64,000 bases of DNA, taken from Candidatus Anstonella stagnisolia. Lineage in GTDB: Archaea; Micrarchaeota; Micrarchaeia; Anstonellales; Anstonellaceae. Each line of letters opens with the position of its first letter. The stretch's first letter is position 1. The notes beneath the pieces are model-generated. The model saw only the letters and a list, made by a program, of their open reading frames with translations. It was not told the origin of the DNA and ran no database searches. Below are positions 3,908 to 45,574 of this stretch, one piece after another. A program made the position numbers and the translations under genes. Location of the stretch: the NCBI GenBank assembly GCA_902384585.1, contig CABMCJ010000004.1, positions 322,086 through 386,085 on the forward strand, written 5' to 3'.

Positions 3908-6900
3908 CTAGTTTTCAGGGACTTTTTTTATTTTTGCGATGTTTGTTGCGGTTGTGAGCTGTATGCCCACTATTTTTGAGCCCTCGTCGGTTTTCATCAC
4001 GCCTAGCGCAATGTCGGAGGAGGAGAGGATTGCATCGTTGTGGCTCACCACTACGAACTGCGTGTTGGAGGAGAGCTGGCGAAGCAGCCCTGCGAGCTTG
4101 CGCGAATTCTCCTTGTCAAGGGCAGCATCCGCCTCGTCAAGTATGTAGAAGGGGGATGCCTTGTGCATCTGTATTGAGAATATGAAGAGGAGCGCAAGGA
4201 GCGACTTTTCCCCTCCGGACATGGAATCTATGTAGCGCTCGTGCAATGCATCGCGCACCTTTATCTGCAAGCCTGAGTTGAACGGGTCTGAGGGCTGCTC
4301 AAGCAGGAGCGAGCCTTCGCCCTTGAACACAAGGTTGAATAGCTTCTTGAAGTTTGCGGCTATGCCGTTGAAAGTGGAAAGGAAAATGTCGCGCTTCTTT
4401 GCATCTATCTCCTCTATCATGTGCAGCACTGCGGTCTTTTCGTCTGCAAGAAGGGCGAGCTTGGACTGCACTTCTGCAATGTCCTTTTTCTTTTCCTCGT
4501 AAAGTTCGGGCGCTTTCAGGTTCACTGCGCCAAGGGAAGTTATTTTCAGGTCGGATTCCTTTATGATGTCCTCAAGCTGCGCCTTGGGCGCATCCATGAG
4601 GGCGGGCGGGCTTGCGCCAAAGCTCTCAAGCTCAACCTTGTAGTCCGCAAGCTTGCTTTCAAGTATGGACTTCTTTGCCTCAAGGTCTGAGAGCTGGCGC
4701 GAAAGGGTATCTGAGGAAAACTGGAGCTTGCCGCGCTCTGCGGAAAAGCCGGAGAGCTCCTCTTCAAGGGACTTTAGCTGCGCAAAGAGCTTTTGCATTG
4801 AGGCGCTCAGGTGCGTGAGCTCTTCCTCCTTTTGGGATAAGAGCTTGGAATTTTTCTCGCTCTGTGCGGTGAGCTCCTCTGCCTGCTTTTTGGAAGAGGC
4901 TTGCTCGGAAAGAAGGCCCTTGCGCTCTGTTTCAAGCTCGCTGTCCTGCTCGCGAAGCAGGGAAAGCTCGCCCTCTTTTGTTTTTATGGAAGAATCAAGC
5001 TCTGAGCGGGTTTCAAGGAAGGAACGCAGCTCCTGTGCGTGCGCATCCTCCTGCTTTTGCTCGGTTTGCTCCTCTGTTGCGATGGAGGCGGAAATGGACT
5101 CGCGCTCCTGCTGCATCTTTTCTATCTGCGAGTTTAAGGAGAGAAGCTCCTTTTCCTTTTGGGAAATCTGCTGCCTTAGGGAATCCGAGCCTGTTTGGAC
5201 TGATGCAATCTTTTCCTTCATGGACTCTATGGACTTGCGCTGGGCTGCCATGCTGTCTATTTCAAGCTCTATGCCTTTTGACTTGAGCTCAAGCTCTGCC
5301 TTTTCCCTGCGCTTCTTTGAAATGCTCTCGCGTATGGAATAGAGTTCGCTGTATGCGCCCTCGCGCTCTTTTTTGAGGTCCTCTATGTCGGACTCAAGCT
5401 TTTGGAGCGCGCTCTTTGAGAGTATGCTGGACTTTGCGCTGCCGCCGGTTATTATGCCGGAGCGCTCAAGCAGCTCGCCATCAAGGGTGGACATGCGCGC
5501 TTTCCCTATGCCGACTTTCTTTGCGGACTCAACGTCCTTTACGAGGAGCGTGTCGCCAAACACGTAGGACATTGCAGAAAAATATTTGCGGTCGCAGGAA
5601 ACGTAGTCAAGAACGAGCCCAAGGGAGCTTGGGGACTTTGAGGCTGCATTGGATTCTGCGGAAATCGCGCTTTGGGGGCGGTCAAGGGGAATGAAAGTGC
5701 ACCTGCCTGCCTTTTGGGACTTGAGCCTCTCTATTGCGGCTGTTGCAACGTCAAGGGACTCCACTATCACGTAGGTGAGGCGGTTTCCCGCGCACGCCTC
5801 TATTGCGCGCGAGTATTCCGGCTCGAATTTTATGAGGTCTGCGACAGTGCCGTAAATGCCCTTTATGGAAGAGCGCATTTCAAGCACGGATGAGATTGCG
5901 GGATTTGTTGCGGATGCCGAGACGCTTGCGCGCAGTATCGCGTGCTTTTCCTTGAGCTCAAGCATGCGCCTGTCAAGGAGAGGGATGCTCTTGTTCAGGT
6001 CCTTTTCCTTTGAGAAGAATTTGTCTATTTCCTTTGCAAGCGAATCTATGTCGGAAGAGATGTTGCCCTTTTCCCCCTCGAGCTTTTCGTTTGAGAGTTT
6101 GGGAAGCGAAGAGGTAAGGGACTGTATTTCGGAAAGGCGCATTGTGAGCATTTCCTTGCTCTTTGAAATGTCCGAAGAAAGGGAGGCGCGGGATTCGCGG
6201 GACTGCTGCAAGGAAGATACAAGGGAATCGAGCTTGGAGCGTATTGTGGAAAGCTTGGAGCTCTCGGACTTTTGCTGCTCGCCTTCCAGGGAAGATATTT
6301 TTGCGTTGAGGTCCTTTAGCTGCGTTTTTAGTTTTGAGATTTCGCCTGAAAGCTGCTGCACCTTCTTTTTTTGCAAGTCTTTTTTTCCTGCAAGCTCCTT
6401 GAGGCGGGCGTCTATGCGCGTGAGGTCCTTTTTCCTCTCCGTAAGGGAGGCTGCTGCTGCGGAAATCTCCACCTTGAGCTGCTCTATTTGCTTAAGCGTG
6501 CCATCGCGGGCGTTTTGCGCGTTTGCCTTTGCGGAAAGCTCTGCGCGCCTTGCCTCAAGTGCAGTTACTTTTGAGTCCAGCGTTGAGAGGCCCTCTGCGA
6601 GCTTTTCGCGCTCTGCCTTTGCTGCAATGTATTTTTGGGAAACTTCTGTGTGCTGCCTGCTCTGGTGCTCATGCTCGCGCTTTACGATTGTGTAGCGCGC
6701 GCCCTTTCTTTTTTCCGTTGCATCGTTGTATGCAAGGGCTGCGTCGCGCTCCTTTTCAAGCTCGCCCAAATATGCAACACGCTCTGAGAGCACGATGTTG
6801 GAATCCGAGATTTTGCGCTCGACTTTCTCAAGCTCGTTCATTGCCTCTTTCTTTTTCTCCTCAAACTCGGAAATGCCTGCGACAGTGTCTATTATTTCGC

Positions 6901-7339
6901 GGCGCTCCTTTGCATTGAGCTCTATTATGTGCTGCACCTGCCCCTGCGCGATTATGTTGTGCGAGCCGACCTCAAGGGCAAGCGGGCGCAGCGCCTCGAG
7001 CACGGAAGTGCGCGTAGCGCGCTTTCCATTTATGCGGTAAATGCACTTGCCGTTTTTCCCATCGTCCTTTATTGCGCGCTTTAGCTCCATTTTCTTGTCG
7101 CCATCTATGTAAAGAGTCACTTCAGCGTGTTTTGAGGACGTGTTAATGAGTTCGGAAACTTTTTTTGCGCGAAGCGAGCGCAAGGCGCTCTCTCCCAGCG
7201 CAAAGCGTATTGCGTCCGTTACGTTGGATTTTCCTGAGCCGTTGGGGCCTGCGAGGCAGATGAAGCCCCTTGAGAGGGCAATATCGGCGTTTTTGAAAGA
7301 CTTGAAACCGCGCAATCGAATCCTTGAGAGAAATATCAT
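3908..7339 (-). CDS. smc: chromosome segregation ATPase SMC
   Basis: 1143 aa. Walker A GPNGSGKSN at the N-terminus, long coiled coils, a central hinge, and C-terminal LSGGEKSLLALLFIFS...YILDEADAALD. Confidence 0.93.
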   Translation of the reverse strand: MIFLSRIRLRGFKSFKNADIALSRGFICLAGPNGSGKSNVTDAIRFALGESALRSLRAKKVSELINTSSKHAEVTLYIDGDKKMELKRAIKDDGKNGKCIYRINGKRATRTSVLEALRPLALEVGSHNIIAQGQVQHIIELNAKERREIIDTVAGISEFEEKKKEAMNELEKVERKISDSNIVLSERVAYLGELEKERDAALAYNDATEKRKGARYTIVKREHEHQSRQHTEVSQKYIAAKAEREKLAEGLSTLDSKVTALEARRAELSAKANAQNARDGTLKQIEQLKVEISAAAASLTERKKDLTRIDARLKELAGKKDLQKKKVQQLSGEISKLKTQLKDLNAKISSLEGEQQKSESSKLSTIRSKLDSLVSSLQQSRESRASLSSDISKSKEMLTMRLSEIQSLTSSLPKLSNEKLEGEKGNISSDIDSLAKEIDKFFSKEKDLNKSIPLLDRRMLELKEKHAILRASVSASATNPAISSVLEMRSSIKGIYGTVADLIKFEPEYSRAIEACAGNRLTYVIVESLDVATAAIERLKSQKAGRCTFIPLDRPQSAISAESNAASKSPSSLGLVLDYVSCDRKYFSAMSYVFGDTLLVKDVESAKKVGIGKARMSTLDGELLERSGIITGGSAKSSILSKSALQKLESDIEDLKKEREGAYSELYSIRESISKKRREKAELELKSKGIELEIDSMAAQRKSIESMKEKIASVQTGSDSLRQQISQKEKELLSLNSQIEKMQQERESISASIATEEQTEQKQEDAHAQELRSFLETRSELDSSIKTKEGELSLLREQDSELETERKGLLSEQASSKKQAEELTAQSEKNSKLLSQKEEELTHLSASMQKLFAQLKSLEEELSGFSAERGKLQFSSDTLSRQLSDLEAKKSILESKLADYKVELESFGASPPALMDAPKAQLEDIIKESDLKITSLGAVNLKAPELYEEKKKDIAEVQSKLALLADEKTAVLHMIEEIDAKKRDIFLSTFNGIAANFKKLFNLVFKGEGSLLLEQPSDPFNSGLQIKVRDALHERYIDSMSGGEKSLLALLFIFSIQMHKASPFYILDEADAALDKENSRKLAGLLRQLSSNTQFVVVSHNDAILSSSDIALGVMKTDEGSKIVGIQLTTATNIAKIKKVPEN

Positions 7340-9871: not shown

Positions 9872-10837
9872 TCAGGCAAGGGTTGCCTGCATTGCAATTT
9901 GCTCACCTATTTGTGAATCTGCGATTGCGTTGTAGCCAAGCTTTTGCAAGTGCGCTGCCATTTCCTCCCCCCTTCCAAGCGCGCACACGATTTTTTTCGG
10001 GTTCGCTGCATCTATGTATTGGAGGATTTCGGAAAAGTCAGCATGGTCGGAGAGGGGGAAGGCGCGGTCAAGGGGAAGCTGCGCATTGAGTGCCCAGCCG
10101 GTTGCGGCTGCAGTGAGCACGTTCATGTTGTAGGCTTCCGAGAGGGAGTGCGCGAGCGAAAAATTCACGGAATTCATGGGCATTATTGCGACAAATGGGT
10201 CGCGCAGCATTTCTGCGCTCTCTGCGCTGCCGCTTCGCACGCGGGAAAGGCGCACCCCTAAGGATTCGTATTTTTTGCACACGTCGTCTATGCGGCTGCT
10301 TACTATAGGGGTTATGCCACAGGAATCGTTTAGGAATTTTGTAATCTCTTGGGCTTTTCCGATTGTGTATGCGCCGAAAATAAGCGAGCTTTGGGAATTG
10401 TTTTTCCTTACCCAGTTTTCCATTTGGGAAAGTATTTCTTCGCGCGCGGGAAAGCGCATTTTCGGGTCGCCGTACGTGCTTTCCATCACAAGAGTGTCGC
10501 ACTCCTTGACTTTTGCGCCTGCGCACGTGAAGCTTTGGGAGAGCTTGAAATCGCCGGTGTATGTGAGGGTGGAGCCGTCAAGCTGCGCGTGGAGCTGGGA
10601 AGCTCCAAGCATGTGTCCTGCAGGGAGAAGGGAAATGCCTTTTGGGATTGGATGCGCGTTCTTTGCGCCCGCAAGATGCAGGGTTTCCCCCGTCGCGAAA
10701 ACGTTTTTCCTTGCGCGCACTGCCGCAGTGTGGTCGGAATGCGCGTGGGACACAAAGCACAGATTGGCCTTTGCGTGGTCGAGCGCGATTTCGTGCTCGA
10801 GGCCGGGAAGCCGAATTTTCATGTTGGGCAGAAGCAT
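9872..10837 (-). CDS. metallo-beta-lactamase / beta-CASP family nuclease (COG1236-like)
   Basis: HxHxDH motif (VSHAHSDHTAA) and a C-terminal beta-CASP-type motif (PLSDHADFSEILQYI). 321 aa. Confidence 0.75.
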   Translation of the reverse strand: MLLPNMKIRLPGLEHEIALDHAKANLCFVSHAHSDHTAAVRARKNVFATGETLHLAGAKNAHPIPKGISLLPAGHMLGASQLHAQLDGSTLTYTGDFKLSQSFTCAGAKVKECDTLVMESTYGDPKMRFPAREEILSQMENWVRKNNSQSSLIFGAYTIGKAQEITKFLNDSCGITPIVSSRIDDVCKKYESLGVRLSRVRSGSAESAEMLRDPFVAIMPMNSVNFSLAHSLSEAYNMNVLTAAATGWALNAQLPLDRAFPLSDHADFSEILQYIDAANPKKIVCALGRGEEMAAHLQKLGYNAIADSQIGEQIAMQATLA

Positions 10838-18151: not shown

Positions 18152-18258
18152 GGGCCGATAGCTTAGCCTGGTTGGAGCGTTCGACTGATAAATTTTTGCC
18201 CTCAGGGGCGAAAACTTTTGAAATCGAAAGGTCGGGAGTTCAAATCTCCTTCGGCCCA
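18152..18258 (+). tRNA. tRNA-Ile (anticodon GAU) with a 32-nt intron at 37/38
   Basis: Hand fold: acceptor GGGCCGA/TCGGCCC, D stem GCTT/GAGC, anticodon stem TTCGA/TCGAA with loop CTGATAA, T arm GGGAG-TTCAAAT-CTCCT, discriminator A. Intron about 18191..18222. No encoded CCA. Confidence 0.9.
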
Positions 18259-20618: not shown

Positions 20619-20776
20619 AGCCCCGTCGTCTAGCGGCCAAGGACACTGGGCTTTGAACAACCCTTTTTGCGCCTCCAGATGGGCACGGCGCAAAAAGCGT
20701 TGACGGAAACGTCAACAGAAGATGAAAAGGGTTGCGAAGAAACCCAGTTACAGCAGTTCGAATCTGCTCGGGGCTA
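20619..20776 (+). tRNA. tRNA-Gln (anticodon UUG) with an 85-nt intron at 37/38
   Basis: Hand fold: acceptor AGCCCCG/CGGGGCT, D stem GTCT/GGAC, anticodon stem CTGGG/CCCAG with loop CTTTGA-[intron 20657..20741]-A, T arm AGCAG-TTCGAAT-CTGCT, discriminator A. A relaxed bulge-helix-bulge can be drawn (CUUU/GAAG central helix with GAA and AAA bulges). Confidence 0.88.
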
Positions 20777-42847: not shown

Positions 42848-43705
42848 TTATTGCAGCTCGTCAAGTATTTTGCTTATGTCCACGTTTTCTATTGGGCGCT
42901 TGCACGTTGGCATCTCGGAAAGGTGCGGGATGCCGTCCTCGTAAGTGGGCTTATCCTCCTTGTAGAAAACCCCGATTGGGATTTTGTCGCCCCACTCAAA
43001 AGTTTTTGCAAATGCAGCCTGCTTGTCCTCCGCATTGTGGTTCTTTTCATCAAGCTTGTACACGCGCTGCATGAAGTATTGGTAGGTATTTAACTTGTTG
43101 AAAGTGACGCAGGGCTGCAGCACGTCTATGAGGGAAAAGCCCTTGTGATTTATGCCGCCGAGTATTGTATTTACCATGTGGGGCAAATCCCCTGAGAAGG
43201 TGCGCGCAACGTAAGTAGCGCCCGAGGAAATCGCAAGCGCCAGCGGGTTCACAGGGTCTTCAAGCACCCCGTGCGGCGTGCTCTTGGATTTGTAGCCTTT
43301 TTCGCTTGTGGGCGAAGTCTGCCCTGTTGTAAGCCCGTACACCTGGTTGTCGTGCACTATGTAAGTGATGTCCAGGTTGCGGCGCATTGAATGTATGAAA
43401 TGCCCCATCCCGATTCCGTATCCGTCGCCGTCGCCTCCGACTGCGATTACTGTGAGGAGATGGTTGCCCAGCTTAACGCCGGTTGCGACTGGAAGCGAGC
43501 GGCCGTGCAGGGACTCGTATGCATACGTTTTCATGAAATGCGGGAGCTTTCCGGAACAGCCTACTCCGGAAACAACTACTGTGTCCTTTGGGTCTATCTC
43601 GCTTTTTGCAAGCGCGTTCTTTAGGGATATCAGGATTGGGAAATTCCCGCAGCCTGGGCACCATTCGGGCGCGTGGCCGCTTTCGTATTGTTGGACTGTT
43701 GCCAT
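42848..43705 (-). CDS. korB: 2-oxoacid:ferredoxin oxidoreductase beta subunit (TPP-binding)
   Basis: MATVQQYESGHAPEWCPGCGNFPIL...GVGCSG...GGDGDGYGIG. Start at ATG 43705. The 21 extra codons of the track ORF lie in the insert. Confidence 0.92.
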   Translation of the reverse strand: MATVQQYESGHAPEWCPGCGNFPILISLKNALAKSEIDPKDTVVVSGVGCSGKLPHFMKTYAYESLHGRSLPVATGVKLGNHLLTVIAVGGDGDGYGIGMGHFIHSMRRNLDITYIVHDNQVYGLTTGQTSPTSEKGYKSKSTPHGVLEDPVNPLALAISSGATYVARTFSGDLPHMVNTILGGINHKGFSLIDVLQPCVTFNKLNTYQYFMQRVYKLDEKNHNAEDKQAAFAKTFEWGDKIPIGVFYKEDKPTYEDGIPHLSEMPTCKRPIENVDISKILDELQ

Positions 43706-43778
43706 AAGATTACCTACTGATATAATTTCCGTCAACGCTTTTTGCGCCGTACCCGCCTGGAGGCGCAAAAAGGGTTGT
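43706..43778 (-). other. 73-nt insert in the korB start region; its first 53 nt (43778..43726) are homologous to the tRNA-Gln intron
   Basis: Minus strand ACAACCCTTTTTGCGCCTCCAGGCGGGTACGGCGCAAAAAGCGTTGACGGAAA versus intron 20657..20709, which differs at 3 positions, all in the loop between CTTTTTGCGCC and GGCGCAAAAAG. Confidence 0.85.
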
Positions 43779-43826
43779 GCACCATTCTGGCGCGTGGCCG
43801 CTTTCGTATTGTTGGACTGTTGCCAT
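43779..43826 (-). repeat. upstream duplicate of the first 48 nt of korB (opens a 38-codon uORF)
   Basis: Identical to 43658..43705 except for one synonymous position (CCA versus CCC). It starts 8 nt after the korA stop, which is the expected natural korB start position. Confidence 0.9.
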
Positions 43827-43834
43827 ATTATCGC

Positions 43835-45574
43835 CTATTGCCATCCTGCCATTTTCTTTATCCTGCCCACCACATCTGAAACTATGAAGGGCCTGCCGTC
43901 GTATTTGAGGTAGGTGTGCTCTATTAGGATGCCGGTTTTCTCACGGATGAGGTTGTGCATCTGCCCGGTGCTGTTGAGCTCAATCACCATGCATTTTTCA
44001 ATCCCGTTCAATGCTGCCTTCACTTCCTTGTCCGGGAAGGGGGATGCCCAGAGTATTTGTATTGCCTTGAGCTTTTTCCCTTCTTTGCGAAGCACCTTGA
44101 GCGCCTCAAGCGCGGCGCCTTTTGTTGAGCCCCAGAAAACAATTGCGGCCTTTGCATCCGCATCCCCGTATATTTTGGGCGCGATTAGGGAGCGGGGGAT
44201 GTTTGCGAGCTTTCGAGCCCGCTTGTCAACCTGGTTTGTGCGGTCCTGGGCACGCTCGCTTGTAAAGCCTGTTTCGTCGTGCTCGTAAGAGGAGGCAACG
44301 TGCAGCCCGTTTGGCTGCCCGGGGAAGCAGCGCGGCGAGATGCCATCGGACGCCAATTCGTGCCTCTTGAAATTTTCAGCATTTTGCATTTGGGAATCCT
44401 GCATTATTTTTCCGCGCAGTATTTTCACTTTTGAATCGTCAAACCTGCCCGTTGTCACGATTTGCTCTGCCAAGTGCTTGTCTGAGAGCATTATTGCGGG
44501 GGTTTGGGCTATTTCAGCCCAGTTGAGCATGTCTATTGCGCCAAAGAAGCACTCGTCAATATCGCCTGGGCAGAATACGAGCCTTGGGAATTCCCCCTGG
44601 GATGCGTGCAGCGCGAACTGGAGGTCTGCCTGCTCAGTGTAAGTGGGCATGCAAGTTGAAGGGCCGGGGCGCATTACGTCCACTATCAGGACCGGCTGCT
44701 CGCTTAGGCCCGCAAGCCCGAGCGCCTCTGTCATGAGGCTGAAGCCGCCGCCGGAGGTTGCAGTCATTGCGCGGCAGCCCGTGAACGCTGCGCCGCACAG
44801 CATGTTTGCGGCTGCGATTTCGTCCTCCGCGTGCTTTACAACCATTTTGTATTCGCGCTCGTGCGCTGCCATGTAGTGCAGCACCGATGAGGAGGGGCTC
44901 ATGGGGTACTCTGCAACGAACTTGCAGCCGCCCTTTAATGCGCCGATGCAGATTGCCTCGTTGCCGTTAAGGAGTATTTGGTTTTTTGAAGGCAAGCGCT
45001 TTGCGAGGAAAGGGATTTGGGCTTTTGAATCCCTTGCATTGTCAAAGCCGCACCTGCCTGCTGAAATGTTCTTCTTTATGATGTCGTCGCCCTTCTTTGA
45101 GAAGAGTTTCTTTAGTACGTCCTCAAGCACCACGAAATCAACGCCAAGCAGGGAAAGGGCTGCGCCAACCGCGACTGTGTTGAGGAAAACTTCGCCCCCG
45201 GTTTTCTGCGCGCAGGAGTACATCGGGATGGGGACGTATTTCACATCCTTGCGGAGCTTGGACACGTCCACTTTTGTTTTTTCAGAATCGTATATTATTG
45301 CGCCATCCTGCGCAACCTCGCCTGCGTGCAGCGTTATTGTCTCGTCGTTGAGAGCGATTAGAACGCTAATCCCGCCATCAAGCGCATAAATTTTTTGTGC
45401 GCTTGCGCGCACTGCAAAAGTATTGTGCCCGCCGCGTATGAGGGATGGGTAGTCGTTCTCGCCAAAAACGTTCAGGCCCAGGTGCTGGAGGCATTTTCCG
45501 AGCATTAAGCCTATTGTCATAACGCCGGAGCCTGCCTCGCCGCCCACTTTCAACGTGAATTCGTTTTCCTGCAT
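43835..45574 (-). CDS. korA: 2-oxoacid:ferredoxin oxidoreductase alpha subunit (fused gamma-alpha type)
   Basis: 579 aa with an N-terminal gamma-like domain (KVGGEAGSGVMT) followed by alpha domains. Adjacent to korB. Confidence 0.92.
   Translation of the reverse strand: MQENEFTLKVGGEAGSGVMTIGLMLGKCLQHLGLNVFGENDYPSLIRGGHNTFAVRASAQKIYALDGGISVLIALNDETITLHAGEVAQDGAIIYDSEKTKVDVSKLRKDVKYVPIPMYSCAQKTGGEVFLNTVAVGAALSLLGVDFVVLEDVLKKLFSKKGDDIIKKNISAGRCGFDNARDSKAQIPFLAKRLPSKNQILLNGNEAICIGALKGGCKFVAEYPMSPSSSVLHYMAAHEREYKMVVKHAEDEIAAANMLCGAAFTGCRAMTATSGGGFSLMTEALGLAGLSEQPVLIVDVMRPGPSTCMPTYTEQADLQFALHASQGEFPRLVFCPGDIDECFFGAIDMLNWAEIAQTPAIMLSDKHLAEQIVTTGRFDDSKVKILRGKIMQDSQMQNAENFKRHELASDGISPRCFPGQPNGLHVASSYEHDETGFTSERAQDRTNQVDKRARKLANIPRSLIAPKIYGDADAKAAIVFWGSTKGAALEALKVLRKEGKKLKAIQILWASPFPDKEVKAALNGIEKCMVIELNSTGQMHNLIREKTGILIEHTYLKYDGRPFIVSDVVGRIKKMAGWQ

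Follow-up and report, generated by a model that had tools for sequence, protein, structure and literature searches.

The 64-kb window (the whole stretch of DNA analysed here) carries on its forward strand an interrupted gene for tRNA-Gln(UUG) and on its reverse strand the genes korA and korB, which encode the alpha and beta subunits of a 2-oxoacid:ferredoxin oxidoreductase. The intron of the tRNA-Gln gene and a short insert at the korA–korB junction are two copies of one apparently undescribed hairpin element of 50–70 nt. The tRNA gene comprises a 5′ exon covering tRNA positions 1–37 (20619–20656), an 85-nt intron (20657–20741) and a 3′ exon (20742–20776) that runs from position 38 to the discriminator base A73, the CCA not being encoded. 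Removal of 20657–20741 in silico restores a clean 75-nt tRNA-Gln(ttg) cloverleaf in ARAGORN, which places the intron at the canonical 37/38 position; the intact gene was missed by both ARAGORN (default settings) and Rfam (gathering threshold).

The intron is of the BHB type, as judged from its fold and from ARAGORN. In the canonical form of this motif, hBHBh′, two 3-nt bulges are found at the splice sites with a 4-bp helix between them. The modelled fold of tRNA-Gln corresponds to a relaxed hBHBh′, in which a 3-nt bulge on the 3′ side (AAA) adjoins the anticodon stem, and then come a CUUUG/CGAAG helix, a bulge of 2–3 nt on the 5′ side and a 10-bp outer helix; the helix at the splice sites can be drawn with 5 bp or, alternatively, with 4 bp and a 3×1 internal loop, and a strict-geometry scan recovers neither. 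The 3′ part of the intron (20710–20741) is specific to this locus, and has no counterpart in the korB copy or in most other family members. Three of its segments are paired: CGTCAAC with GTTGACG, AAAAGGGTTG with the 5′ end of the element and CGAAG with CUUUG of the anticodon loop; AA precedes the 3′ splice site. Broad-specificity endonucleases of Micrarchaeota accept relaxed BHB forms like that of tRNA-Gln (PMC3239211), and the structure is predicted to be cut by the splicing endonuclease. In a relative that is ~90% identical (locus L059), the orthologous intron differs at 5 of 85 positions, all of them unpaired, so that the variation is structure-preserving; the exons are identical, and the 3′ part of the intron is kept except for C20735T.

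On the reverse strand, korA (43835–45574; 579 aa), whose orthologue at locus L001 carries POR and POR_N domains, is followed by korB (42848–43705; 285 aa), and full-length 285-aa homologues all begin at this ATG. The insert was initially placed in korB; its actual site is between the korA stop (43835) and the korB ATG (43705). Read along the mRNA, to which the element is sense, the junction consists of an upstream direct repeat (43779–43827; a T, the ATG and 15 codons of the korB start), the complete element (43726–43778), a linker TTATATCAGTAGGTAATCT (43707–43725) and a downstream direct repeat (43658–43706), which is the real korB start. The longest exact stretch common to the repeats is 39 nt, extending to 48 nt with 1 mismatch (43826–43779), and the flanking duplication of the korB start, not remarked on in the initial annotation, is 48–49 bp. 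The last ~14 nt of the linker resemble a diverged version of the original spacer between the korA stop and the korB start (13 of the 22 columns before ATGG match in an alignment of the two copies); the linker also includes GUAGGUAAUC, which is probably Shine-Dalgarno-like, judging from the archaeal 16S 3′ end. An upstream ORF of 38 codons (43710–43826; MATVQQYESGHAPEWCTTLFAPPGGYGAKSVDGNYISR) takes its stop codon TAA (43712–43710) from the linker, and ends 4 nt before the korB ATG. A 306-aa ORF that starts from a TTG at 43768 crosses the element, and gene callers can mis-start korB as a result.

An insert is found at the same junction in a relative from another genus (77% nucleotide identity), in the independent assemblies L001 (ENA) and L031 (GenBank), so the window insert is not an assembly chimera, a possibility that the initial annotation had raised. 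In more distant relatives korA and korB overlap by one base (−1), or are separated by a gap of 6 or 17 nt. The equivalent upstream ORF in L001 has 24 codons and also stops 4 nt before the ATG, with the element in another frame; since the two ORFs read the element in different frames, no peptide is conserved. The korB copy in L001/L031 has the stem seen in that genome's own tRNA-Glu and tRNA-Tyr introns. Such stem variants, along with species-specific substitutions in both repeat copies, would favour independent or renewed copying into the junction, whereas the use of one site and the equal 4-nt stop-to-start spacing would favour common ancestry of the two insertions; alignments of the junction between genera are ambiguous.

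BHB-dependent splicing of the operon transcript, also suggested initially, is unsupported, as the korB copy lacks the stretch of intron that base-pairs with the 5′ junction. No sensible excision at this copy emerged from the minimum-energy fold (hairpin only) or from a strict BHB scan; the scan returned one spurious match, which would remove the korA stop codon. Because the strict scan missed the relaxed BHB of tRNA-Gln, its result at korB excludes the strict motif only, and a relaxed BHB is excluded there mainly because the 3′ tail is missing.

The 53-nt match between the two copies, on which attention had first been focused, is real: 50 of 53 bases are equal between 20657–20709 (+) and 43778–43726 (−), and 0/100 shuffles gave two matches. 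It begins, as had been claimed, at intron nucleotide 1 (the boundary being set by the 75-nt cloverleaf), and the three mismatches do all fall within the 13-nt hairpin loop (TCCAGATGGGCAC vs TCCAGGCGGGTAC), for which the probability with three random differences is C(13,3)/C(53,3) = 0.012. The tRNA-Gln copy (20658–20709) is made up of a hairpin (20658–20702) and a single-stranded tail, ACGGAAA (20703–20709). The hairpin has a CAAC/GUUG foot, a C.C mismatch (20662/20698), arms CTTTTTGCGCC (20663–20673) and GGCGCAAAAAG (20687–20697), and a loop at 20674–20686. This copy scores 81.1 bits with the covariance model R1 and folds in isolation at −24.5 kcal/mol (z = −4.3), and the korA–korB copy scores 78.1 bits and folds at −23.1 kcal/mol (z = −3.6). 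Their common stem variant, TGCGCC/GGCGCA, is found among 48-nt copies otherwise only in L059. A search of the 64-kb window returned no additional or diverged copies, leaving a total of two. Other features described initially are present too, namely the hairpin GTTGACG-GAAA-CGTCAAC (20699–20716) and the 10-bp repeats CAACCCTTTT (20658–20667) and AAAAGGGTTG (20725–20734), but the repeats do not bound the unit, because their pairing is the tRNA-specific outer helix of the BHB and is absent from most other copies. The korB copy had been thought to break off inside the hairpin; it is complete, because the homology halts exactly at the family's conserved 3′ boundary and the sequence from CGTCAAC onward is an addition of the tRNA-Gln locus.

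Further copies, for which the initial annotation had proposed a search, were found: there are ~100 in archaeal genomes and metagenomes. The unit has the form N-AACCCTTTT, a variable stem-loop and AAAAGCGTT-N′-ACGGAAA(A), with 42–67 nt between the fixed ends. In the family's inverted ends, CAACCCTTTT and AAAAGCGTTG, 9/10 positions pair, with one C.C mismatch, and the tail ACGGAAA(A) follows. A loose search pattern made from the two ends, fixing only 22 bases, matched 44 loci in archaeal genomes, of which 42 are genuine (L007 and L030, which lack the hairpin and were not recovered by the covariance model, were left out), and 53 loci in metagenomes. Twelve further diverged copies lie within the same loci, against 1 match in shuffled sequence. 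Most copies come from DPANN lineages, often with several per genome; at least 5 were found in ~21 kb of loci from one MAG (L022, L031, L037 and two in L045). Several archaeal phyla share the conserved ends, whose exact conservation is in part built into the search pattern.

The hairpin has been maintained while its sequence changed. In a 48-nt subfamily, 93.7% of cells pair and 6/6 variable pairs change on both sides, a covariation score that was reached by 0/500 shuffles; over 98 distinct sequences, 95.5% of cells are paired and double-sided change is seen in 10 pairs, the terminal pair N/N′ being seen as C-G, U-A, G-C and A-U. These comparative data indicate that the structure of the element is under selection, with paired positions constrained and the loop free. 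Copies are also alike within genomes: identity in the variable region is 0.82 within genomes and 0.58 between genomes, and 0/2000 label permutations reach the within-genome mean. Gene conversion among fixed copies, as opposed to fresh insertion, could also produce this likeness.

Most copies lie inside a tRNA gene or abut one, and sense orientation prevails among the tRNA calls; the classing of hosts, made by brute-force ARAGORN, is noisy and was used only for presence, orientation and approximate junction. In calls at the canonical position, the element begins 1–5 nt after the 5′ splice site. The host tRNAs with an insertion at position 37/38 include those for Gln, Glu, Gly, Asp, Tyr, Ala, Pro, Ser, Arg and Lys, and other placements are in the D-loop of tRNA-Val and, once, in a T-loop. 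Outside tRNA genes, copies occur in tRNA leaders and trailers, 23S rRNA (L035, which is interrupted), intergenic gaps and the operon junction. One copy, in L044, is some 800 nt away from a group II intron. Target duplications flank some of them, with lengths of 48–49 nt in the window, 19–21 nt in L001/L031, 18 nt in L016, 22 nt in L017, 25 nt in L062 (read by eye) and about 66 nt in L011; they are absent from most extragenic copies examined. The duplicated targets are arbitrary (the korB start, the 3′ end of a 332-aa gene, tRNA 3′ ends), and the span between the repeats is only about 55–120 nt, with the same unit every time. Microhomology is seen at some junctions, and the korB insert contains filler sequence.

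Taken together, we consider it likely that both window sequences are copies of a small, non-coding, self-folding element of DPANN archaea that has been copied within genomes, and that the korB copy was inserted with duplication of its target; the distribution of the family points to mobility. Under this reading the element, N-AACCCUUUU with a variable stem-loop and AAAAGCGUU-N′-ACGGAAA(A), would spread from place to place within genomes, and its copies would last where the host tolerates them, as in tRNA and rRNA genes, tRNA leaders and trailers and short intergenic gaps. For copies in tRNA and rRNA genes, removal by splicing as BHB-type introns is predicted. In tRNA-Gln the element forms the 5′ two-thirds of the intron, and the tRNA-specific 3′ tail folds onto the 5′ junction and the anticodon loop to make the BHB. 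At korA–korB the whole unit has entered at the DNA level with a target duplication of about 50–60 bp, which kept an intact korB start downstream of the element. The upstream duplicate gave a short ORF that runs from the old korA-coupled start through the hairpin and stops 4 nt before the ATG, so that korB may still be translated by termination–reinitiation, a role suggested by the geometry.

As to how the element might be copied, the clues are defined ends on both sides, long target duplications of variable length and no associated protein gene found. The variable-length duplications match no known prokaryotic transposition chemistry. Our best guess would be copy-and-paste at a staggered break or stalled fork, with a folded single strand (DNA or excised intron RNA) as donor. 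Since most extragenic copies lack a duplication, the duplications may mark rare events that survive only at constrained sites. A bolder version, which we advance tentatively as a possibility, is that the hairpin is a self-contained intron seed, mobilised by machinery that DPANN archaea have in common and whose substrate is the folded single strand, of DNA or of excised intron RNA.

A function for the host at the RNA level would also fit the way in which the ends are kept across phyla and introns favour the sense orientation. The hairpin with its ACGGAAAA tail would then be a candidate target for some conserved protein or RNA of DPANN archaea to bind, perhaps one that acts in processing, modification or stability, and would have been recruited into many pre-tRNAs and the korAB mRNA; the likeness of copies would reflect common constraint and gene conversion, not mobility. 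Purifying selection on paired positions with a free loop agrees with this, as do the sense orientation of most tRNA-associated copies and of the korB copy, the occupation of the korA–korB junction in two genera and the repetition of the 3′ motif two to three times in L072, L082 and L069. We nevertheless regard a host module as unlikely, since the hosts are heterogeneous (more than 10 tRNA isoacceptors; anticodon-, D- and T-loops, 23S rRNA, trailers and intergenic DNA) and orthologous tRNAs occur with and without the element, tRNA-Val being empty in L045 and filled in L014 and L076. Moreover, in L029 and its relatives the element is apparently antisense inside a tRNA intron (the flanks having been read by eye), the upstream ORFs at korB read it in different frames with no conserved peptide, and tandem arrays and flanking target duplications are signatures of copying at the DNA level.

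Alternatively, a plasmid or virus might have integrated site-specifically, leaving attL/attR repeats on the pattern proposed for Caldiarchaeum, and then been almost wholly deleted, with the hairpin as a remnant beside att. Direct repeats of the target around some copies and the strong association with tRNA genes would be expected of such a scar, and tRNA introns have been proposed to arise through the integration of mobile elements (PMC3293823). This origin is improbable, given that the repeats copy arbitrary targets and that deletion to near-equal end points, leaving the same unit and about 55–120 nt between the repeats on each occasion, is implausible. A scan of 690 kb of flanking DNA yielded neither a recombinase gene nor any larger element with such ends; the unpaired ends there were only the intron's AAAAGGGTTG, a few diverged copies (the other end being off-motif) and partial tandem units. 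Clustering of 935 neighbouring ORFs grouped only orthologous loci, with no recurring transposase, integrase or reverse transcriptase, and the annotated Pfam matches of the 20 genes between the window copies are all housekeeping (ProRS, the A-type ATPase operon, HerA, Rad50 and squalene/phytoene synthase). The end pattern gave 0 matches in 2.9 million viral contigs. Finally, a one-off repair scar or assembly chimera, by which part of the tRNA-Gln intron was copied into the operon with no wider significance, would account for the flanking duplication and the filler, as in templated insertions, but it is highly improbable and already refuted as a complete explanation by ~100 family members elsewhere, by a korB copy that is a complete unit with the family's own boundaries, by the same junction being occupied in L001 and L031, and by the 3 differences between the window copies and the single difference between the direct repeats, which show that neither pair arose by duplication of reads. 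The family could nonetheless spread by templated copying.

Searches for a known identity of the element returned no Rfam 15 family at the gathering threshold. A match to Ocean-V (16.8 bits vs a threshold of 75, E = 0.91) was treated as chance because it is weak and was not reproduced in other copies (it was not seen in nine other loci). A C/D-box or K-turn RNA was rejected as the boxes are lacking, a small self-cleaving ribozyme as there is no Rfam match, a CRISPR-like array as the ‘spacers’ of the tandem arrays are mutually identical, and a promoter or terminator cassette as no TATA box lies at a usable distance from korB. Full-text literature searches, with the motif in both orientations and with DPANN tRNA introns combined with MITE and mobile-element terms, found no paper that describes the element.

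In form the element resembles MITEs, REP/REPIN sequences (which are linked to RAYT transposases) and Correia elements, which are likewise short, non-coding and multi-copy, have inverted termini that fold into a hairpin, are homogeneous within a genome and alter transcripts when inserted beside genes; with REP it also has in common a palindrome with a short conserved single-stranded flank. The suggestion of a mobile intron-like or MITE-like element made in the initial annotation is upheld by the multi-copy family, with many similar copies per genome, by the inverted repeats of a short non-coding form, by stem covariation and by within-genome likeness. It does not extend to the fixed short target duplication of MITEs (duplications here range from 18 to about 66 bp, and most extragenic copies have none) or to a transposase-encoding autonomous relative with the same ends, which was not found in the fetched flanks (690 kb). 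In REP/RAYT systems the pattern is the opposite of that seen here, where the ends are conserved between phyla and the middle is genome-specific. Integron attC sites act as folded single strands. Like the element, they are imperfect palindromes of variable length and sequence in which only the inverted ends are conserved and fixed stem bases are unpaired. They offer an analogy only; the element has GTTGACG where attC requires GTTRRRY, and no cassette arrays or integrase genes were seen near element copies. The cbf5 pre-mRNA of Crenarchaeota has a BHB intron, and it resembles the korB copy as an archaeal intron-type sequence inside a protein-coding transcript. The korB copy differs in that it precedes the coding sequence and has no BHB, and translation of korB does not depend on its excision.

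The closest parallels are with intron gain in other archaea. In the Caldiarchaeum model of tRNA-gene disruption, a 1.8-kb recombinase-encoding element is involved (Sugahara et al. 2012, PMC3293823); there too intron gain and duplicated tRNA fragments are tied to DNA insertion, whereas the unit inserted here is about 50–70 nt and carries no gene. For the tRNA introns of Thermoproteales, transposition has been inferred; its mechanism is described as unknown but presumed to operate on DNA (Fujishima et al. 2010, as summarised in PMC4090602). On that summary, closely similar introns in non-orthologous tRNA genes and at different positions are common to both cases. The present family differs from that account in that the common part is a discrete 42–67-nt hairpin with conserved inverted ends found in several phyla, that it lies at the 5′ end of the intron in canonical-position calls, and that it is also present outside tRNA genes (23S rRNA, trailers, intergenic DNA and an operon junction), with target duplications around some copies.

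The mechanism of archaeal intron transposition was still unknown at the time of a 2014 review (PMC4090602). To this question the family brings a discrete, searchable unit, insertions that have arisen independently many times in different phyla, and extragenic copies with footprints at their junctions; these footprints (target duplications, microhomology and filler) constrain the mechanism of intron gain and can be checked in population metagenomes. For annotation, it means that tRNA finders overlook genes that bear the element and that the korB start can be miscalled. The korA–korB junction provides a worked example of a compact genome tolerating an insertion in an essential operon, probably because the gene start was duplicated and translational coupling was kept through a short upstream ORF. 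If the intron-seed reading is true, insertion into tRNA and rRNA genes would itself generate new BHB introns that carry the element at their 5′ splice site; in the extragenic copies flanked by long, variable duplications, archaeal intron transposition would have its first footprints at the level of DNA, and the copy-and-paste chemistry would be unlike that of any known prokaryotic transposase.

At default thresholds, neither ARAGORN nor Rfam reports a tRNA at the tRNA-Gln locus of the window. Removal of nucleotides 20657-20741 yields a clean, 75-nt tRNA-Gln(UUG), which identifies the 85 removed nucleotides as an intron at the canonical 37/38 position. As the initial annotation had proposed, the first 53 nt of this intron (20657-20709, plus strand) are found again on the minus strand (43778-43726) with three mismatches, and no shuffle of the window reached the two matches to this string. 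The details of that proposal also hold: the sequence common to both copies begins at intron nucleotide 1, and all three mismatches fall within the 13-nt loop separating the arms CTTTTTGCGCC and GGCGCAAAAAG (P = 0.012 by chance, our own arithmetic). The pre-tRNA-Gln has a predicted fold of -66.9 kcal/mol (z = -5.4), in which the anticodon stem is followed by a 3-nt bulge (3' side), the CUUUG/CGAAG helix, a bulge of 2-3 nt (5' side) and a 10-bp outer helix, CAACCCUUUU/AAAAGGGUUG. In this fold the junction is a relaxed bulge-helix-bulge (BHB) splice structure, and the supposed terminal inverted repeats of the intron are the outer helix of this fold. The intron is made up of one copy of the element and, behind it, a tail particular to this tRNA, which builds the BHB. 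In L059, a relative with ~90% DNA identity, the exons of the orthologous tRNA-Gln are identical to those of the window, whilst the introns differ at 5 of 85 positions, namely intron nucleotide 1 (5' bulge), three loop positions and an extra C facing the bulge; all five are unpaired, so that the orthologous introns do vary in a structure-preserving way. A second intron-bearing tRNA in the window, tRNA-Ile(GAU) (18152-18258, plus strand), is detected by Rfam and missed by default ARAGORN; its ~33-nt intron forms a T-run/GC-stem/A-run hairpin (TTTTTGCCCCTCAGGGGCGAAAA) similar to the central hairpin of the element, without the AACCC and GCGTTGACGG ends, and could be a decayed relative or unrelated.

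The second copy had been placed inside korB; it lies instead between korA and the real korB start. On the minus strand, korA (45574-43835) is followed by an 8-nt spacer, a repeat of korB nucleotides 1-48 (43826-43779, one mismatch), the 53-nt unit (43778-43726), a 19-nt linker and the real korB start (43705). Nor does this copy break off inside a second hairpin, as had been thought: unit boundaries are sharp across the family, the homology between the window copies ends exactly at the conserved tail, and at korB the whole unit has been inserted, accompanied by a target duplication. Full-length KorB homologues have 285 aa and start at the second ATG of the junction (43705), whilst the first ATG opens a 38-codon upstream ORF that runs through the hairpin to a TAA (43712-43710) 4 nt ahead of the korB ATG; korB expression would be preserved by termination-reinitiation past this ORF, and the linker sequence GUAGGUAAUC is a candidate Shine-Dalgarno-like motif. 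A 306-aa ORF (43768-42848, minus strand) has a TTG start within the element and continues into korB, and automatic gene callers could mis-start korB at this TTG; close homologues all have 285 aa, counted from 43705. The final ~14 nt of the linker are similar to the spacer that originally divided the korA stop from the korB start (13 of 22 columns before ATGG match, by our own count in the alignment), which suggests that the duplication was probably about 60 bp long originally. The window korA ends in ...TGG CAA TAG (43835-43845, minus strand), and that of L001, an ENA assembly of a relative in another genus, in ...TGG TAA (9908-9919); the window gene has apparently lost its ancestral stop and runs one codon further, with a spacer 9 nt longer than that of L001. 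Of 20 genes between the two window copies, those with a Pfam annotation are all housekeeping, and none is a candidate partner of the element.

The element has relatives well beyond the window, both in archaeal genomes (42 loci) and in JGI metagenomes (53). A pattern of 22 fixed bases, drawn from features common to three copies (AACCCTTTT, 20-45 unspecified bases, AAAGCGTTGACGG), matched 44 loci in one-genome-per-species archaeal and bacterial genomes; two of these, L007 and L030, lack the hairpin and were not recovered by the covariance model, roughly 2 chance matches being expected. Apart from L016 and L017, the remaining 42 are in archaeal MAGs of Micrarchaeota, Iainarchaeum, Aenigmatarchaeota, Altiarchaeia and Nanoarchaeota, with a few labelled Bathyarchaeota, Thermoplasmatales or Methanobacteriota, and several genomes hold more than one copy. 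The L016 and L017 contigs, binned in a Sulfurovum-labelled MAG, carry the element adjoining tRNA genes with 18-22-nt target duplications and are probably mis-binned archaeal DNA. The same pattern found the 53 further loci in the JGI collection and had no match in viral contigs; a looser search of the fetched loci added 12 more diverged copies (1 in shuffled sequence).

The unit reads N-AACCCTTTT, a stem-loop variable in sequence and length, then AAAAGCGTT-N'-ACGGAAA(A), with 42-67 nt separating the fixed ends. Its ends CAACCCTTTT and AAAAGCGTTG are mutual inverted repeats with one fixed C.C mismatch, so that the entire unit makes a single long hairpin followed by an unpaired tail, a fold predicted for the isolated element as RNA or DNA and for either strand. 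In the 48-nt subfamily, which contains both window copies, 93.7% of cells pair, change is two-sided at all variable stem positions with no one-sided changes, and the covariation score was reached by 0/500 shuffles. Among 98 distinct sequences aligned with the model, 95.5% of cells pair, double changes occur at 10 pairs, and the terminal pair N/N' is found as C-G, U-A, G-C and A-U; the wobble pairs, few in number, are without exception U(5')-G(3'), an indication that the folding strand is the one written here. Judged from these alignments, the hairpin is under selection. Mean identity in the variable region is 0.82 within genomes versus 0.58 between them, a within-genome value reached by 0/2000 label permutations; the family is structured, multi-copy and, within genomes, homogeneous. 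Variants were also seen. In five JGI metagenome contigs of one lineage (L049, L050, L051, L052, L083) a hairpin repeat unrelated to the element (GGGGGACACCACGCAATGCGATGTCCCCC) regularly comes after it, and in L083 the two make up tandem units. Eight loci (L005, L008, L011, L015, L041, L046, L047, L098) form a subfamily with homopyrimidine/homopurine stems, in which the purine arm is mirrored just past GACGG (e.g. GAGAAAGAAAA-GCGTTGACGG-AAAAGAAAGAG) and could allow alternative pairing or a triplex. At L072, L082, L069, L040 and L092 the 3' motif AAGCGTT(G/C)ACGGAAA stands in 2-3 consecutive copies after a single hairpin, and looks like a reiterated binding or cleavage site.

KorB matches assign the window to Micrarchaeota-like DPANN archaea. 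L001, the closest relative on record (KorB 87% identical, DNA ~77%), is syntenic with the window and also has a korA-korB insert, comprising an 18-21-nt duplicate of the korB start and the same kind of unit; its 24-codon upstream ORF stops 4 nt ahead of the ATG and reads the unit in a different frame. The arrangement is the same in L031, an independent GenBank assembly, whilst in more distant relatives korA and korB overlap by one base (-1) or lie 6 or 17 nt apart. This marks the insert as real and derived, and the assembly chimera considered initially can be set aside. The L001/L031 copy has the stem GCTCGC/GCTCGC, like the tRNA-Glu and tRNA-Tyr introns of its own MAG, and the window variant TGCGCC/GGCGCA occurs elsewhere among 48-nt copies only in L059, so each genus has its own genome's version at this junction. 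Species-specific synonymous differences are present in both copies of the duplicated korB start. Either the junction was occupied by independent insertions in two lineages, or an ancestral insert was overwritten and homogenised in each through within-genome copying; the latter fits the shared site, the shared 4-nt stop-to-start spacing and the fact that deleting 34 nt between a pair of ACAA motifs would turn the window junction into that of L001. Loop sequences of three copies (window intron, window korB and L059 intron) lie at about equal distance from one another, with 2-3 differences each, which dates the window korB copy to about the separation of the window and L059 species. In another DPANN lineage (L071, 348-405; L087, 8459-8516), a tRNA that reads as tRNA-Ala UGC from its anticodon loop, CUUGCAA, has the element as an intron and lies 161 nt upstream of korA; the korA-korB gap is 13 nt without an insert, and this proximity may be coincidental.

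The majority of copies lie in or against tRNA genes, and the tRNA calls are mostly in sense orientation. Hosts at 37/38 include tRNAs for Gln, Glu, Gly, Asp, Tyr, Ala, Pro, Ser, Arg and Lys, and other sites are the Val D-loop and one T-loop. In copies called at the canonical position the element starts 1-5 nt past the 5' splice site, and the remainder of each intron is tRNA-specific and pairs back onto the 5' junction. The tRNA-Val site is empty in L045 and filled in L014 and L076. Further copies stand directly before or after a tRNA gene (L004, L016, L017, L019, L046, L047), in tandem arrays (L013, L025, L083, L089, L099) or in short intergenic gaps, and none lies convincingly inside a long ORF among the loci examined. 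Such a distribution is expected for an element surviving only where its RNA is removed or no harm is done. One copy (L035, 1345-1387) interrupts a 23S rRNA gene, in a stretch recognisable as ...GCUUAGAGGUAGCCAUCCUUU | AAAGGAAGG...GUAACAGCUCACC, and appears to be a mini-intron of ~57 nt. Six loci (L029, L032, L054, L061, L075, L085) sample one orthologous locus, which, with flanks parsed by eye, looks like a tRNA-Glu(CUC) gene interrupted by several introns; on this parse the element would be antisense within a ~150-nt intron in the D-arm region, and no other antisense copy was seen within introns.

Long direct target duplications flank several copies at constrained sites: 48-49 bp (window) and 19-21 bp (L001/L031) at the korB start, 18 bp (L016) and 22 bp (L017) at a tRNA 3' end, 25 bp at L062 (read by eye) and ~66 bp at L011, over the last codons of a 332-aa gene. 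With each of these duplications, an intact version of the interrupted feature is retained. Lengths vary, and some junctions show microhomology or a small number of filler nucleotides (CAACAA fused to CCC in L001). We know of no prokaryotic transposition chemistry that fits defined ends together with variable, long target duplications. No larger element with the same ends was found in the flanking DNA of the loci, and no protein recurred among neighbouring ORFs. The Micrarchaeota MAG locus L044 holds a group II intron (4509-6368; Rfam D1-D4 and D5-D6 matches) and, ~800 nt downstream, an element copy (7157-7205) in a duplicated tRNA 5'-end fragment; a reverse transcriptase is therefore available in at least one host genome.

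Our inference is a selfish element that spreads by DNA-level copying. Mobilisation would proceed via a staggered break or template switch in which a folded strand, either DNA or excised intron RNA, serves as the donor. On the chief rival reading, hairpin and tail carry a host RNA function; this fits the conservation of the element and its sense bias, but is hard to square with the variety of hosts, the orthologues without the element, the L029-group antisense copy, the arrays of tandem units and the duplicated targets. Structurally the element is like MITEs, REP-like palindromes and integron attC sites; it differs from them in that it has no fixed-length target-site duplication, no cognate transposase in the loci examined, and ends that depart from the attC consensus. 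It matched no family in Rfam 15, and no description of it turned up in the literature library searched, by literal motif or by topic. Among described phenomena the nearest is that of Thermoproteales, where BHB introns have transposed among tRNA genes on a large scale by an unknown mechanism (PMC4090602); disruption of tRNA genes through mobile-element integration has also been modelled (PMC3293823). We rate the element as akin to transposing archaeal introns or to palindromic repeat elements. Its real interest is that copies outside tRNA genes retain their insertion footprints, so that the mechanism of archaeal intron gain becomes testable.
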